Made by a program: the position numbers and the translations under genes. Shown piece by piece: positions 10,843 to 38,933 of a stretch of DNA of 39,704 bases (position 1 is the stretch's first letter; each line of letters begins with the position of its first letter). The notes under the pieces were generated by a model. That model was not told the DNA's origin. It saw only the letters and a list, made by a program, of their open reading frames with translations, and searched no databases. Source of the DNA: Candidatus Woesearchaeota archaeon (GTDB taxonomy: Archaea > Nanobdellota > Nanobdellia > Pacearchaeales > GW2011-AR1); the NCBI GenBank assembly GCA_964388875.1, contig CAYMCA010000001.1, forward strand, positions 309 to 40,012, in the 5' to 3' direction.

Positions 10843-11160
10843 ATGAGAATAGCAGCAGAGATAGTGCTGATGCTCCTGATAATAGCAGTGTTAATCAGCG
10901 CGTCAGTTATTGGCATTTATGCACACAGCACACTTGACAGAGAATATAATCTTTCAGGCCAATTGGACAGGTTGCAGCTTCTTAGGGCTATGGCAATCTC
11001 TCTTTTGATAGTGCCCTTGGCATATTACTTTGGCTCTAACATACGCTATCTTCTGTACGACAGAAAGCATGAAGAGATAATGAAGGCACTGGAAGAAGGC
11101 ACAAGAGAATTAAGGTTTAGAAACAGCTACCTGAATAATTATAGCAAAGGACGCTCATAA
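10843..11160 (+). CDS. Membrane protein (105 aa)
   Basis: SD aaaggag lies 9 nt before ATG 10843. Two TM helices. Confidence 0.5.
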   Translation: MRIAAEIVLMLLIIAVLISASVIGIYAHSTLDREYNLSGQLDRLQLLRAMAISLLIVPLAYYFGSNIRYLLYDRKHEEIMKALEEGTRELRFRNSYLNNYSKGRS

Positions 11161-11224
11161 TTTACCAAAAAAGCGCCTTTGCTATAAGTGGGGCTTCTTA
11201 AGTCTTAAAGAAAAGGAGAAAAAG

Positions 11225-11587: not shown

Positions 11588-11639
11588 GGAAAGGAGCAAA
11601 AAGAAAAACAAGAAAAGGAGGAAAGAATGATAAAATTAA

Positions 11640-11815
11640 GACTTCAAAAATGCTCTTTGAGTACCCACCTGTTTTAACTAACAGAAAGCAAAGGCATTTT
11701 TGATAGCTTCAGAAACAAAGTTTCTGATAGTGCTCAAGATTTTGTGAAATCTTGACATGCTCAAAAACTTAAACACGCTCTGGGGATTTAGTCCAGAGTT
11801 TTTGACAAAGCAAAT
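11640..11815 (+). repeat. Mosaic hairpin repeat, copy C
   Basis: Shares modules with 37862-38056, 14422-14522 and, inverted, 34590-34730. Contains hairpins at 11710-11726 and 11735-11754. Confidence 0.7.
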
Positions 11816-11843: not shown

Positions 11844-12113
11844 ATGAAGAGCCTTCAAAGAGCATACAAAGCTTTGGGTGAGTGCAACTTAAAAAAATTC
11901 AGGTTAGCCATAGAATCTATTGAGAAGCAGATTACGCCTGCTGCATTAAAAAACATTCCAAGAGCGCCTATTTTGAAGGAAGGAATTGAGAAGATTTACA
12001 GAGATTTAGTAAAGCTGGAACAAGATGATATGGCAGATTTAAGCCGCAGAATTGGCAGCATTGGCTATGGCCTTTGGTGCAAGGTAGATGATATTGGCTA
12101 TGTGCAAAAATAG
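11844..12113 (+). CDS. Hypothetical protein (89 aa); start moved downstream of the repeat
   Basis: The track start 11757 lies inside the repeat element. ATG 11844 follows gagagagagg. Confidence 0.4.
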   Translation: MKSLQRAYKALGECNLKKFRLAIESIEKQITPAALKNIPRAPILKEGIEKIYRDLVKLEQDDMADLSRRIGSIGYGLWCKVDDIGYVQK

Positions 12114-12528: not shown

Positions 12529-13392
12529 ATGAGCAAGACATGCGTTGCATACCCGATTGTGGCTGCTTTAAAGAAAGCAGAGGAGATTGTAAAGCCGGTG
12601 GAAAAATGGGCAGCTAACAATGAGGCACAGCGGGTTTTTCTGGAAGAGTTTTTTAGTGAATGCCAAGAAGAAATCAGCAGAATTCCGGAGATAGAAAGCA
12701 TTGCATCCTGGAGTGCTAATGTTATCAACAAGTTTCTGAAAGAGAGGGGTTTTTCAATTCAGCTTCAGCCATTTGACTCATTGACATTCGGGGTTGCAAG
12801 TGTTTTGGATGTTCTTGTTGAGTGGCTGAATAAAGGCGATGTCACCTCAATTAAAAAGGGTGGGGTAACCTATCCGGCAGTAAGGATTGAAAGTAAGCAT
12901 GCTGATTTCTTTGAAATAAGCACCCATAAAAATCCAATAGTATGCTTGCATACAAAATCCGGGGATTTGGTGCACATGACAATCCTTGACAATGCCCCTG
13001 ATGGCTTTGATATGGTGGAAAAGGCGCAGGAGTTGTTCAAAGGCGAGGAGAGATATAATTTCAGCAGCGTGGTTTTCCCGATGGTTAGCCTTAACCAGGA
13101 TGTTGATATAAGCTGGCTGATTGGATTGAGAACAAAAGGCGCAGATGGCCAGCCTGCAGTTATAACACAGGCGCTTCAGCAGACAAAGCTCAGAATGAAT
13201 GAGGAAGGCGCAAGGGCGCAGAGCGCTGTTGCTATTGCAGTATTCAGGGGAGGGTTCTCGCCAGAGAAACAATATGTTATTGACAAGCCTTTCCTCTTCT
13301 GGATAACCCGCCCAGGCATCTGCAAGCCGCTCTTTGTTGCATATGTCACAGAGGATGACTGGAAAAACCCAGGCGACATCAGAAGCAAGTAA
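12529..13392 (+). CDS. Serpin-like protein, unusually short (287 aa)
   Basis: YVIDKPFLFWI fits the PROSITE serpin signature as I remember it. NEEGARAQSAVAIA resembles the reactive-centre-loop hinge and lies about 20 aa upstream. Confidence 0.6.
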   Translation: MSKTCVAYPIVAALKKAEEIVKPVEKWAANNEAQRVFLEEFFSECQEEISRIPEIESIASWSANVINKFLKERGFSIQLQPFDSLTFGVASVLDVLVEWLNKGDVTSIKKGGVTYPAVRIESKHADFFEISTHKNPIVCLHTKSGDLVHMTILDNAPDGFDMVEKAQELFKGEERYNFSSVVFPMVSLNQDVDISWLIGLRTKGADGQPAVITQALQQTKLRMNEEGARAQSAVAIAVFRGGFSPEKQYVIDKPFLFWITRPGICKPLFVAYVTEDDWKNPGDIRSK

Positions 13393-13402
13393 ATCAAAAC
13401 AT

Positions 13403-13450
13403 GCGAGAGCCTTGCCCAAACAGAAACAAAAAGCAAGGCTCTCGCTTTAT
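13403..13450 (+). terminator. Hairpin terminator after the serpin-like gene
   Basis: GCGAGAGCCTTGC (13403-13415) pairs with GCAAGGCTCTCGC (13433-13445), a perfect 13 bp stem, then TTTAT. Confidence 0.6.
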
Positions 13451-13469
13451 CAAGAGAGAGGAGGATAAA

Positions 13470-13763
13470 ATGAGAAGGAGAAAAGGAAAACTCATTATTT
13501 TAAAAAACAGTGATGCCCATAAGATAGGGGATATATGGGTAGTATATGGAGAGGGGGAGGACGGGGATAACAAAAGGGCTTTAATAAAAATTGTTTCTAT
13601 AAATGATAATGTGAGTGTTACAGGCTGGACGGGTTCAGATTGGCGTACTGTCCCTACTTATGATTTAATTAGAGGTGCTAGAGGAAGGGGGGCAAGAGAA
13701 TATTTAAAAGAATCCTTGCGGAAATTAGGGTATATCCGGAAGTATCAGAGAAGGGACAAATAA
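13470..13763 (+). CDS. Hypothetical basic protein (97 aa)
   Basis: SD gagaggagg lies 7 nt before ATG 13470. The track start 13401 lies inside the terminator stem. Confidence 0.5.
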   Translation: MRRRKGKLIILKNSDAHKIGDIWVVYGEGEDGDNKRALIKIVSINDNVSVTGWTGSDWRTVPTYDLIRGARGRGAREYLKESLRKLGYIRKYQRRDK

Positions 13764-13979
13764 GATTGGTGGGTCAATTAAAGGCTTTTTGGGCTTGGCA
13801 ATATTGGTTTGGTTATTTGCAAAGTCTATTGAAGGTTTTTTGATGTTGATAGAGATTGCTATTAAAAAATTAAAAGAACAACCAGCCGTATAAAAACCCA
13901 AAGACAAATGTAAATGTTATATAAAATAGTGCAAAGATGGTGAGTATATTGTTGATAACAAAGAAAGAGGAGGAAACAA

Positions 13980-14357
13980 ATGAAAAACAGAAAAGGTCGC
14001 ACTTTAGTTTTAGCTGTTAGCATAATAGCATTATTTTCATTTTTGGCAGGCTTGAAGATATTCACGATAACCAGCCATGCAAATGCCAATGCAGAGCCGG
14101 CAGAAACACAGCAAGAGCACAAAGAGCCGAGCGAAACAATAGGGCAGAGCGCAGAGACAAGGGATATAAATGCGCTGCTTAAGAAAGCAGAGGGATATGC
14201 AAGGCAGGCAGAAGAGGAATATAAAATAGCTGAAGGCAGTTGGGGTGCAGAAAGCAAGGCATATGGGAGCCAGCCGGCTATCTACTTTGCATTAAAAACA
14301 ATTAGCATTCAGAATGAGGTTATTATCAAGCTTCTGAGAAAAAAGGTGGACATGTAG
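13980..14357 (+). CDS. Signal-anchored protein (125 aa), paralogue of 19579
   Basis: SD agaggagg. Has an N-terminal hydrophobic segment. The C-terminal QNEVIIKLLRKK matches QNEALIELLRQK in 19579. Confidence 0.55.
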   Translation: MKNRKGRTLVLAVSIIALFSFLAGLKIFTITSHANANAEPAETQQEHKEPSETIGQSAETRDINALLKKAEGYARQAEEEYKIAEGSWGAESKAYGSQPAIYFALKTISIQNEVIIKLLRKKVDM

Positions 14358-14396
14358 GAAGGATGCCTTAAATACAACAGAGAGCCAGTGGGCTAG

Positions 14397-14619
14397 TTTT
14401 TTCTGAGGTGCAGCTTCGCTATGGATAATTCTGTTGTTTAGATTACATTGTTTCAGAACTTCAGAAACAAAGTTTCTGATAGTGCTCAGAAAAATAAACT
14501 AAGGTTTCAAATTTTTCTGACATTATACAGATAGAAAATTCTGTACAAAATGTCATATAACCCGCAGAATTTTCTATACATGGGAGCGAGAGTTGGCAAC
14601 TGCAGAGAGCCCTCTGGCT
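14397..14619 (+). repeat. Conserved 66 nt module (25 + 41 nt) interrupted by a 157 bp insert
   Basis: 14397-14421 is identical to 34734-34758 (25/25). 14579-14619 matches 34759-34799 (40/41). The two halves are contiguous at the 34.7 kb locus. Confidence 0.8.
14422..14576 (+). mobile_element. MITE-like 155 bp insertion flanked by a TA duplication
   Basis: An empty site exists at 34757-34758. The ends tggataattctg and cagaattttcta form a 10/12 imperfect TIR. TA is present on both flanks. Confidence 0.4.
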
Positions 14620-14699
14620 GAATCTATGCAGCCAAAGATTTTTAAGCAAGCATAAATATCAAAGATAAAAATAATAACTGCCTTTTGGCTTGATTAAAA

Positions 14700-14903
14700 A
14701 TGGAAGAATGGTATGGCAAAGAAGAAGACATATTGAATATAGAATTAACAACAGGCAGGGATTATTGGAAAAGCATAGAGTTGCCCAATGGAATAGTTAT
14801 TGACATAGGAGAAGACGGCAAGATTAAAGGCATTGAAATTTTAAGGGCGAGCAAGGTATTTTCAGGGGATGTTAAGAGTGTGCTGGAATCTGTTTCTAGG
14901 TAG
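14700..14903 (+). CDS. DUF2283-family protein (67 aa)
   Basis: ILNIEL...GIVIDIGEDGKIKGIEILRASK matches the DUF2283 pattern as I recall it. Confidence 0.65.
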   Translation: MEEWYGKEEDILNIELTTGRDYWKSIELPNGIVIDIGEDGKIKGIEILRASKVFSGDVKSVLESVSR

Positions 14904-14970
14904 TTTTTCAGCCTTTTTGGTGCTAAAATGCATCAATCACCAAATATTTTAATGAGAAAGGGAGGGCAAT

Positions 14971-15327
14971 ATGTTTCGGATAATTAAGAACAAGAGAGGA
15001 AAAGCAACACTTATTGAGTTCTTAGTAGCTGTTGCAATCATAGCTATTTTTACTGCTTTGTTAATCCCTATCATTGATGGGTTACGCAAAAAAGCAGCAG
15101 CCAGCAGGGCAAAGCCTGAATCTGTACAGGCAGTTCCTGAATCAATGGGAAAGACAATCACGCTCGAATGGAAGCAGGGGATGCGGGCAACGCCTGAAAC
15201 TATTGAGATAGTTGAAGGCGTCAGCGGGATAACTGTCAATGACTGCAATGACCTTGTTCTGGCACTCTCAGGCGGAAGCCATAGGATAATCCCGAAAGAA
15301 AATCTTGTTGAATACAGGGACAGGTAA
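14971..15327 (+). CDS. Degenerate prepilin-leader protein (118 aa), paralogue of 11225
   Basis: The RGKATLIEFLVAVAIIAIFTALLIP leader has Glu displaced by one position. The C-terminal TLEWKQGMRATPETIEIV matches 11225. Confidence 0.65.
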   Translation: MFRIIKNKRGKATLIEFLVAVAIIAIFTALLIPIIDGLRKKAAASRAKPESVQAVPESMGKTITLEWKQGMRATPETIEIVEGVSGITVNDCNDLVLALSGGSHRIIPKENLVEYRDR

Positions 15328-34589: not shown

Positions 34590-34800
34590 TGTCATTTAGA
34601 TTGTTTGAGCATTTGAATCAACAAACAAAAAAGCCAGAGGGCTTTTCAGCATTCAAGAGCTGTTTTGTCTTGTCAAGATTGCAAAATCTTGAGCATCTCG
34701 AAAATCAAAAGATTTTCGAAGTCTTGGTGCTGGTTTTTTCTGAGGTGCAGCTTCGCTACATGGGAGCGAGAGTTGGCAACTGCAGAGAGCTCTCTGGCTC
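34590..34800. repeat. Mosaic hairpin repeat (inverted orientation) plus the intact 66 nt module and a terminator-like hairpin
   Basis: 34671-34695 is the reverse complement of the tgctc-stem-gaca unit. 34734-34799 is the uninterrupted form of 14397-14421 plus 14579-14619. Confidence 0.7.
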
Positions 34801-34920
34801 GCTTATTTTTTAGCCGAACAAGAAAGGTAAGGTGATGCGCGACAGATTTCTAAAAGTTGAATGAAAGAATATGCAAGAGCTGTAAAGGGATTTAAAAAGT
34901 TTCAAGGAAAAGGAGGAAAA

Positions 34921-37627: not shown

Positions 37628-37861
37628 GAAGAAAGATTAGGAAAGATAAAGAAGGAGAAAAAGGGAAGGTGAGAACATGAACAATGCAAACAGCGAAACA
37701 GAAATAGTCTCAGTATTGGGCTTTAAGGTTATAGCTGCTGCTGAAAGCCCGGCTGGCATGAATGAATTAAGCGCCTCAATATCCTGAGGGATAAAGAAAT
37801 TGCTGGTAAATATTCAGGAAACCCGGAAAAGAAAGATATTCTGCTCTGTGTTCTTGGAAGT

Positions 37862-38056
37862 TAACACATCAAAAATGCTCTTTGTGTACGCTGTCTGTTT
37901 CAACTCGCAGAAAGCAAAGGCATTTTTGGGGTGCTCAAAAACTCAAACACGCTCTGTGACTCATCAAAAATCTTTTGGAATTTCGAGATTTTTGAATGTG
38001 CTCAGAAATGCAAGATATCAACAGCATTTCTGACATTAGCCCAGAGTTTTTGACAG
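37862..38056 (+). repeat. Mosaic hairpin repeat, copy D
   Basis: Collinear with 11640-11815 for catcaaaaatgctctttg, cagaaagcaaaggcattttt, gctcaaaaact.aaacacgctctg and ccagagtttttgaca. The internal hairpins differ. Confidence 0.7.
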
Positions 38057-38342: not shown

Positions 38343-38933
38343 ATGGATAATACAGGAACAAAAATAGCGGCAGAAAGAAAAAAGAATAAACTATCAAGAA
38401 GTGGGCTGGCAAGGAGAATTGGTATTTCAGATGTTCATTTATGGCGGATTGAGAAAAGTCTAAGTCAGCCCGGTGCTTTGGTGTTAGCGAAAATAGCTAA
38501 GGTTTTGGGGAAACCAATGGATTATTTCATGCCAAAGATTATAGTAAGGAACACCAAATTGAATGTAGAGAAGTATCTTGTATATTCAGCACAGCCGTCT
38601 TATACGCCAAGAGTGGCACAGGTAATCAATAGGAGGTTAAAAATGAAAAAGCCAGCTGCATCAGCTTCACTAAAGAGCAAGAAACAAAAAGGGGCAGAAG
38701 TACACAAGATAATCGGGGAGATAAAAGCCGGGACAGAGGAATTGCTTCAGCAGGTTACAACAGCAATTAAGCCGGCAGAAGACCTCAAAAAGAAGGTTGG
38801 AAACTTCACGCTTGTATTAAATGGCTCTGACAATATTTTCTCAGTGTATGCCGAGCTGGAAGAAATAACAAGAAACATAAGAGAGGCAGAGGCAAAGCTC
38901 AAGGCATGCCTTGAGAAACTTGGAGATAGCTAA
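38343..38933 (+). CDS. XRE-family HTH protein with a helical C-terminal extension (196 aa)
   Basis: IAAERKKNKLSRSGLARRIGISDVHLWRIEKSLSQPGALVLAKIAKVLGKPMDYF follows the HTH_3 pattern. SD taaggagg. Confidence 0.75.
   Translation: MDNTGTKIAAERKKNKLSRSGLARRIGISDVHLWRIEKSLSQPGALVLAKIAKVLGKPMDYFMPKIIVRNTKLNVEKYLVYSAQPSYTPRVAQVINRRLKMKKPAASASLKSKKQKGAEVHKIIGEIKAGTEELLQQVTTAIKPAEDLKKKVGNFTLVLNGSDNIFSVYAELEEITRNIREAEAKLKACLEKLGDS

Follow-up and report, generated by a model that had tools for sequence, protein, structure and literature searches.

Several non-coding regions of this locus carry short hairpins that resemble one another in their flanks and differ in their stems. An earlier note on this DNA described five intergenic regions sharing short modules in different combinations, and proposed that the changing stems reflect selection on a structure, either RNA or single-stranded DNA. 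The question is therefore what these hairpins are: parts of an RNA, binding sites for a regulator, or pieces of DNA that move. We address it for the whole stretch that was analysed, 39,704 nucleotides (the window), together with related loci from other genomes.

The credible genes of the window are on the + strand throughout, with strong AGGAGG ribosome-binding sites, and the GC skew is positive along its whole length. The gene content is cellular or island-like and not phage-like. The encoded proteins include an ABC transporter, an MscS channel, an M50B peptidase, a serpin-like protein, JAB and ThiF domain proteins, a Clp_N protein, a 783-amino-acid VIT-VWA protein, three N_methyl pilin-like proteins and two XRE-type HTH proteins (27961-28338 and 38343-38933). 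No transposase, HUH or integrase domain was found in the approximately 40 proteins of the window, no tRNA was found in the window, and Rfam gave no match at gathering thresholds over its whole length. A phage origin was considered and rejected: there were almost no matches to PHROGs, and no nucleotide match in the phage and plasmid collections.

The evidence on the domain of the host, from the window and its homologues, is in conflict. The NCBI contig JACPBA010000001.1 (GCA_016180545.1) is 99.9% identical to the window, and exact look-ups with the window proteins led only to contigs of the identical strain. A relative whose VIT-VWA protein has 78% amino acid identity is binned as Candidatus Woesearchaeota, and homologues at 55% identity are found in archaeal contexts, beside TopoVI, proteasome and Hjc genes. 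Many other VIT-VWA homologues, however, are labelled Patescibacteria, and the window has bacterial-looking traits, namely N_methyl pilin signal sequences, GC-rich intrinsic terminators and strong SD sites. Its gene content, too, resembles that of Patescibacteria.

The window has some further features of its own. The stretch 25744-26987 (approximately 1.2 kb) is AT-rich, follows a strong terminator (25779-25823) and has no ORF of at least 60 amino acids on either strand; it contains palindromes, including 25869-25892 and 25924-25972, as well as the degenerate repeat copy E described below, and could be an origin or control region, or the border between two gene blocks. Two 71-nt copies, 99% identical and 591 nt apart (28566-28636 and 29157-29227), each contain an SD sequence, an ATG and a 15-codon mini-ORF (MGMTMQLRQGTRAKA) ahead of a gene; a leader peptide or a regulatory leader may have been duplicated here. 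An operon-like group at 22347-25210 encodes a 350-amino-acid protein with no Pfam match, a JAB-domain protein, a ThiF/E1-like protein and a 95-amino-acid protein, a layout that recalls bacterial ubiquitin-like conjugation or defence modules. A non-coding stretch upstream of the VIT-VWA gene region, GGTGATG(C/T)G..CAGATTTCTAAA (34826-34856), is 87% identical to positions 1529-1559 of the related locus L014, while the sequence around it differs between the two. Finally, NCBI contig JACPBA010000100.1 (L017) is 100% identical to window positions 13385-15302, after which come 184 nt of an unrelated sequence with a higher GC content (L017 1919-2102); the assembly may be chimeric at this joint, or strains may differ within the pilin-like gene 14971-15327.

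Self-BLAST confirmed that modules recur among the five regions, in combinations that vary. Module M1 is represented by 11633-11702 and 37858-37928 (85% identical), with a partial copy at 25969-26000 that matches 11630-11662 at 85%. M2 is shared by 11699-11736 and 14451-14488 (92%), M3 by 11758-11782 and 37932-37956 (96%), and M4 by 11788-11807 and 38036-38055 (95%). A further match, 11731-11757 with 34695-34671 (89%), is inverted. The degenerate copy that the earlier note had placed near 25981-26040 is present as E, although its covariance-model score is weak, and the four stems that were quoted are found at 11734-11755, 14486-14520, 34673-34692 and 38002-38033. The coordinates of all these features are listed in Table 1.

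Table 1. Repeat elements, their parts and associated features. Positions are those of the window unless another contig is named; ^ marks a junction.
Feature	Position	Strand	Description
Composite element A	11641-11806	+	166 nt; modules common to D and B
A, LE hairpin M1	11644-11703
A, hairpin M2	11709-11727
A, unit A1	11731-11757
A, RE unit TGCTCAAAAACT...AGTTTTTGACA	11758-11808		inner CTCTGG/CCAGAG hairpin
Composite element D	37866-38054	+	189 nt
D, LE hairpin M1	37869-37927
D, outer RE unit	37932-38056		loop contains h1 and unit D2
D, hairpin h1	37964-37995
D, unit D2	37999-38035
Hairpin block	14422-14574	+	153 nt, in P3 loop of motif M5; long imperfect outer arms
Block, M2	14461-14479
Block, unit B1	14483-14522
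Block, 13-bp hairpin	14531-14577
Expanded P2 arm of second M5 copy	34645-34728
P2 arm, unit C1	34671-34695		flanks read on - strand
P2 arm, hairpin C2	34698-34719
Weak TGCTCA..TGACA match upstream	34590-34611	-
Degenerate copy E	25975-26045	+	starts TTAAT^ACTTCAAAATAATCTTTGAG (M1 left end), then h1 and D2 remnants
Palindrome TTTTTGAcacaTCAAAAA	25283-25300		reads like a right end (TTTTTGAC) abutting a left end (ACATCAAAAA)
12-bp hairpin TTATAGCAAAGG...CCTTTGCTATAA	11139-11187	+	further module of the repertoire
M5 copy 1	14384-14619	+	11-bp closing stem GCCAGTGGGCT/AGCCCTCTGGC around conserved core; hairpin and T-run after
M5 copy 2	34634-34799	+	closing stem GCCAGAGGGCT/AGCTCTCTGGC; T-run 34806-34811
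M5 copy 3	metagenome contig Ga0209541_10098569 (L003), 290-410	-

The recurring unit had been described as a variable stem between tgctc and gaca. The pattern TGCTCA-N-TGACA does recur, five times in the window against 0.88 expected (no shuffle out of 100 reaches five), but the conserved part is larger than this and extends into the stem. Every unit stem opens with TCA(A/G)(A/G)A and closes with the complement of this sequence, ending in TGA; it usually has (G)TGC before it and CA after it. There are 12 units in the window, of 19-45 nt, with AT-rich, perfectly Watson-Crick paired stems of 7-10 bp. The window has 15 perfect hairpins that measure 7 bp or more and are closed by TCA...TGA, compared with 0-5 (about 2) in 30 shuffles. 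Of the 15, 10 or 11 fall within the four main regions, all of which fold more stably than shuffles, with z scores of -3.4 to -5.0. It is concluded that the regions hold a real, non-random and structurally constrained repeat family of short AT-rich DNA palindromes.

The units are arranged in tandem or nested, and a tandem junction reads TGA-(y)a(g)-TGC-TCA. Nearly all have the same orientation, the single exception being unit 34671-34695, and the polar copies are all on the G-rich strand. The earlier description of 34590-34730 as an inverted copy is right for the flanks of this one hairpin but not for its neighbour at 34698-34719, which scores on the + strand. Modules M3 and M4 together form one TGCTCA[CAAAAACT...AGTTTTTG]ACA unit (11758-11808 and 37932-38056) that has other hairpins in its loop, a small one in A and two in D. 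The shared ending CCAGAGTTTTTGACA, previously assigned to copies "C and D", in fact belongs to the first (11793-11807) and fourth (38041-38055). Nesting of modules in loops is seen in five places: the interior of M1, the outer loop of D, the P3 loop and the P2 arm of motif M5, and the loop of the 14422-14574 block. Short-read assemblies of the same population break exactly at the shared modules, L013 at 11735 and both L016 and L018 at 14581, which is expected, given that the modules are repeats.

A covariance model of the unit was searched against the window and approximately 130 kb of related loci, making about 170 kb of the lineage in all. It recovered the known units and also an M1 hairpin of L014 on which it had not been trained (E = 6e-4), with no other significant match in the window or in relatives with a VIT-VWA identity of 59% or less. 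Further copies exist outside the window, in the related loci L004/L014 and L010. The 12-bp hairpin at 11139-11187 also has a counterpart at L010:686-728 (82% identical), which there adjoins a TCAGAAATG...CATTTCTGACA unit. The full composite copies seen in the approximately 170 kb of lineage are only three, namely A, D and the copy in L014. A metagenome scan returned one related contig. In viral contigs, exact-pattern scans found no match to two modules, and one chance coding match to a 21-mer of M1; a 20-mer of M2 had no match in the scanned genome contigs, which do not include the window's own genome. Annotated plasmids and phages gave no match to the family, and against Rfam at E<=1 the regions gave only chance-level miRNA and snoRNA matches. 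The earlier remark that the sequence is unfamiliar is supported in that no match to an Rfam RNA family or to an annotated mobile element was found.

Two of the five regions lie inside a separate repeat, M5, which the earlier note overlooked, so that its five-region picture mixes two repeats. M5 is distinct from the hairpin family. It has a conserved core of approximately 105 nt, inner stems and a GC-rich closing stem of 11 bp, is followed by a T-run, and is located upstream of small genes. Self-BLAST shows it to be contiguous at 34729-34799 and in L003, and split at 14421/14572 by the 153-nt block that contains M2 and B1. The hairpin modules occupy the P3 loop in copy 1 and the tip of the P2 arm in copy 2; at the P2 position L003 has only a 27-nt hairpin, and the 14384-14619 copy has no arm. 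The structures of M5 are 11-14 kcal/mol more stable on the + strand than on the - strand and contain 5-7 G-U pairs (copy 1: 11 kcal/mol more stable on the + strand, 5 G-U pairs; copy 2: -64.7 kcal/mol on the + strand and -51.5 on the -). By contrast, the mosaics (A, D, the B insert, and the elements of L004 and L010) have equal minimum free energy on both strands. Given the strand-biased stability and the G-U pairs, M5 behaves like a + strand RNA, whereas the mosaics behave like DNA palindromes. M5 has no Rfam match and is a candidate for a small RNA, a leader or a complex terminator, one that would tolerate large insertions in two of its loops.

Presence and absence of the elements was compared with two relatives, L010 (VIT-VWA protein 82% identical) and L014 (78%; a superset of L004). 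Element D is absent exactly at the orthologous site in both, where the sequence is GGAA(A/G)TTAAC^AGAAATGATTAAAAC (reading GTTAAC^AGAAATG across the empty site), with flanks that are approximately 89% identical on both sides. The junction is base-exact, with no flanking repeat longer than 2 nt, and shows that the position of D is the result of an insertion event. D is thereby placed three codons ahead of the stop codon of a small ORF, and this ORF is intact in both L010 and L014. A D-like copy is present at L014:4598-4732 (and in L004), 83% identical to D and approximately 400 nt upstream of the empty site. It stands between two genes that are missing from the window, and a two-gene indel adjoins it. 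The small ORF itself (37678-37790; counterparts at L010 4205-4399 and about 4938-5137 in L014) has an in-frame TGA in the window, TCC TGA GGG compared with TCA GCA GA(T/C) in the relatives, so the window copy may be a pseudogene.

The positions of A and of the L014 copy suggest insertion as well. In-silico removal of the 166 nt of A joins an orphan SD and ATG at 11627 to ORF 11844-12113 in frame, and removal of 150 nt from L014 joins an SD and ATG to a 55-amino-acid gene, again in frame. The restored L014 protein has a K/R-rich N-terminus followed by a membrane helix; a homologue search with ORF 11844-12113 returned only itself. Both restorations together would occur by chance approximately once in nine. 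From this restoration of the frames we infer that these two copies were probably also inserted. All three full copies are located within a few codons of the start or the end of a small gene.

The three full copies have the same ends. They start with AC(T/A)TCAAAAATG and end with GAGTT(T/C)TTGAC, and their end hairpins are alike, TCAAAAATG(C)... on the left and TCAA(A/G)AAC...GTT(T/C)TTGA on the right. The 5′ flanks, in a sample of four, are TTAAG (A), TTAAC (D), TTAAT (E) and TTAAG (L014); the empty site also has the TTAAC, which is therefore part of the target. In both A and the L014 copy the left-hand dinucleotide is AG and the right-hand one AC, which implies that there is no target-site duplication, and comparison of D with its known empty site leaves an ambiguity of no more than 2 nt. 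A piggyBac-like duplication of TTAA was also considered, and rejected since the right end has no TTAA. The ends depart from the classical MITE signature in that they are complementary only through their hairpin arms (TCAAAAA/TTTTTGA) and lack a duplication. The foot of the left hairpin is 3 nt from the junction, compared with 19 nt in IS608, so that an IS608-like guide arrangement cannot be recognised. A, D and the L014 copy represent a single non-autonomous insertion element, 150-190 nt long. Neither the TTAA(S) junction nor the ends of A and D are seen in the blocks at 14422-14574 and 34645-34728, and thus no single insertion rule covers everything.

As the earlier note claimed, stem sequences change while pairing is kept. 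Ten units, chosen because they pair, were aligned by their conserved flanks: 98.9% of the cells are paired and seven of the ten pairs change on both sides, which was matched by none of 500 shuffles and by no slid register. One cell in 94 is G-U, and there are no one-sided intermediates. Because the units were selected as hairpins, this statistic follows in part from the selection, and the comparison of D with its homologue in L014 is more independent evidence. Here there are two compensated double changes, A:T to G:C in the outer stem and T:A to C:G in h1. Approximately 10% of the stem positions are substituted, with four out of six changes compensated, compared with approximately 30% in loops and linkers.

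Covariation of this sort would be expected if the units were cis-acting RNA elements of the + strand, such as terminators or attenuators, RNase processing sites or mRNA stabilisers, under selection for RNA structure. The four regions do fold more stably than shuffles when treated as + strand RNA, the units with conserved flanks score higher on the + strand in the covariance model, and two of the sites sit within M5, which is itself + strand RNA-like. The units also have A-rich 5′ arms and T-rich 3′ arms, and in A a TTTTT run comes directly after the inner CTCTGG/CCAGAG hairpin. However, a terminator scan flagged none of the units; their T-runs lie inside the 3′ arms, and only this inner hairpin of A comes near to the pattern of an intrinsic terminator. 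The equal stability of the mosaics on the - strand, the single G-U cell and the lack of an Rfam match even at the relaxed threshold also speak against RNA, as does the fact that two relatives lack D at this intergenic site, although the flanking sequence there is otherwise conserved. Moreover, A and the L014 copy part ORFs from their SD and start codon. We therefore regard an RNA function of the units as unlikely. Since there are neither wobble intermediates nor strand asymmetry, the alignments argue for DNA-level palindromy, and not a conserved RNA fold, as the origin of the stem covariation. Of the two structures that had been proposed, single-stranded DNA (or a cruciform) is thus the better fit and a selected RNA structure is not supported, given also the clean insertion of D and the two interrupted 5′ ends of ORFs.

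Some more specific candidates were rejected. Several 3′ ends contain TTGACA, which might suggest sigma-70 promoters, but there is no -10 box at the right spacing, the promoter scan was empty, and in L014 the start codon is just 9 nt downstream. The flanks do not fit C/D-box or K-turn RNAs, and no exon-exon pairing was found around A of the kind expected for a bulge-helix-bulge intron.

Watson-Crick palindromes that are present in one genome and absent from another fit single-stranded or cruciform DNA that is recognised by a mobility enzyme. The same pattern is also compatible with template switching, which corrects palindromes with no dedicated enzyme: switching at quasi-palindromes would keep the hairpins perfect, while ordinary or illegitimate recombination would spread them in a cassette-rich, fast-rearranging region. 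This would account for the perfect pairing without one-sided intermediates, and for growth at hairpin tips, and the region is indeed rearranged, since L003 and L014 are strongly mosaic in gene content relative to the window and there is the two-gene indel beside the L014 copy. It would not readily account for a composite of 150-190 nt that recurs with one and the same pair of ends at three unrelated places, always beside TTAA(S), nor for the base-exact insertion of D with a flanking repeat of at most 2 nt, nor for junction tags that are conserved between unrelated stems. We consider it improbable.

The TCA and TGA that are invariant in all units could alternatively be half-sites in operator arrays for a DNA-binding regulator, for example one of the two XRE-type HTH proteins, reading TGA-N4-6-TCA or TCA...TGA; one of their genes is just downstream of D. 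But the half-sites may be as close as 4 nt or further than 100 nt apart, stem sequences vary among units, and neither insertion within ORFs nor presence and absence between relatives is expected of operators, which makes this explanation very unlikely. All three alternatives are less well supported than a mobile DNA element, and it is probable that the family is a mobile palindromic DNA repeat of a REP- or MITE-like kind. This reading draws on the tagged palindromes, the mosaics and nesting, the presence and absence between relatives, the two end hairpins, the lack of a duplication, the position 3′ of a short motif and the single orientation on the G-rich strand.

The resemblance to REP/BIME mosaics that was noted earlier is apt. 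REPs carry a conserved tetranucleotide tag at one end, and have been found inserted into genes and into other palindromes (PMC3733652). Both the GTAG- and CGTC-REPs and REPINs (PMC3733652, PMC2817692) and the present family are short palindromes (20-45 nt) with a conserved tag at the foot of the stem, with stem sequences that vary and units that cluster in mosaics, and both are presumed to be recognised as single-stranded DNA. REP dimers have been documented inside palindromes and genes (PMC3733652), and the modules described here nest likewise. There are also differences. The REP tag is GTAG or CGTC, neither of which occurs here, the units having (G)TGC as 5′ tag and CA as 3′ tail; REP stems are GC-rich and imperfect, and these are AT-rich and perfect; and BIMEs alternate in orientation with conserved linkers, while the present units are tandem or nested in the same orientation. 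REPs are high-copy and accompanied by a RAYT; no RAYT was seen among the approximately 40 window proteins, and the copies are known from approximately 170 kb. By its tag and its non-alternating layout, and with no RAYT known, the family falls outside the REPs in the strict sense.

The IS200/IS605-type single-strand transposons have no inverted repeats, make no duplication, insert 3′ of a tetra- or pentanucleotide and have hairpin ends; they target the lagging-strand template, giving an orientation bias (PMC7290912). A MITE derived from such a transposon would share with the present elements the subterminal hairpins at both ends, with no true terminal inverted repeats beyond them, the insertion 3′ of a conserved motif of 4-5 nt without target-site duplication, and the single orientation on the lagging-strand template (PMC7290912): the polar copies are all on the G-rich strand, which is the orientation expected of lagging-strand-template targeting (PMC7290912). 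On the other hand, IS200/IS605 elements encode TnpA and TnpB, neither of which was found in the window, and no TnpA (Y1) gene was found in the fetched related loci either. The interior of an IS200/IS605 derivative is a deleted IS, and here it is a variable mosaic of hairpins. An assignment to IS200/IS605 derivatives would be made by analogy.

Two further systems share some features. The BOX, RUP, Correia/NEMIS and RPE elements, modular MITE-like repeats known from Gram-positives and other bacteria (reviewed in PMC3184786), are likewise small, highly folded, intergenic and modular, with variable internal hairpins, presence and absence between strains and occasional in-frame insertion in genes; but they have terminal inverted repeats and target duplications (e.g., TA), both absent here, and there is no sequence similarity. 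Integron attC sites also have conserved flanks around a variable palindrome, are recognised as folded single strands and occur among small co-oriented ORFs. They were rejected because their RYYYAAC/GTTRRRY core sites are missing, the unit ends being TGCTCA and TGACA. Furthermore, D is not inserted at G^TT, the units do not follow each cassette and have no extrahelical bases, and there is no integrase in the window.

The best reading, by analogy with these systems, is a non-autonomous palindromic element resembling REP/BIMEs or IS200/IS605-derived MITEs. Such elements would be moved in trans by an enzyme encoded elsewhere, which may recognise the hairpins in single-stranded DNA, as do the HUH/Y1 enzymes of IS200/IS605 and the REP-associated RAYTs; an HUH-type mechanism specifically is a tentative suggestion, and a doubtful one. 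Preferred landing places would be the exposed loops of existing hairpins and sites beside existing units, so that mosaics would grow by accretion, and the apparent covariation could come from a need for a DNA palindrome or from its replicative correction. The most fitting view of the elements is as selfish or neutral DNA, whose effects on neighbouring genes, such as parting a gene from its ribosome-binding site, would be a by-product.

A bolder reading is that the 20-45-nt units, tagged (G)TGC-TCA...TGA-CA, are themselves mobile, by means of an undescribed hairpin-specific single-stranded DNA enzyme of a DPANN- or Patescibacteria-like lineage. They would land in loops and beside each other, and composites would accrete from them and colonise the loops of M5 and the first or last codons of genes. 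We regard this as a long shot. In a still bolder variant of it, the copies that interrupt ORFs would be taken out of the RNA or bypassed in it, and the genes would thus remain functional.

Work on small palindromic repeats has dealt almost wholly with cultivated Proteobacteria, Firmicutes and cyanobacteria, and the small-genome uncultivated groundwater organisms of lineages such as this one are thought to be poor in repetitive DNA. To our knowledge, elements of the REP/MITE type have not previously been described in the host lineage. If the mobile reading is correct, such a lineage has a distinct palindromic repeat family of its own; this would be interesting but not surprising, given that the general kind is known. 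The exact filled and empty sites, together with the TTAA(S) target and the lack of a duplication, provide a handle for finding the enzyme responsible. The repeats break short-read assemblies of these genomes. More generally, apparent covariation in the stems of dispersed hairpins can arise at the level of DNA, and should not be taken as evidence for RNA.
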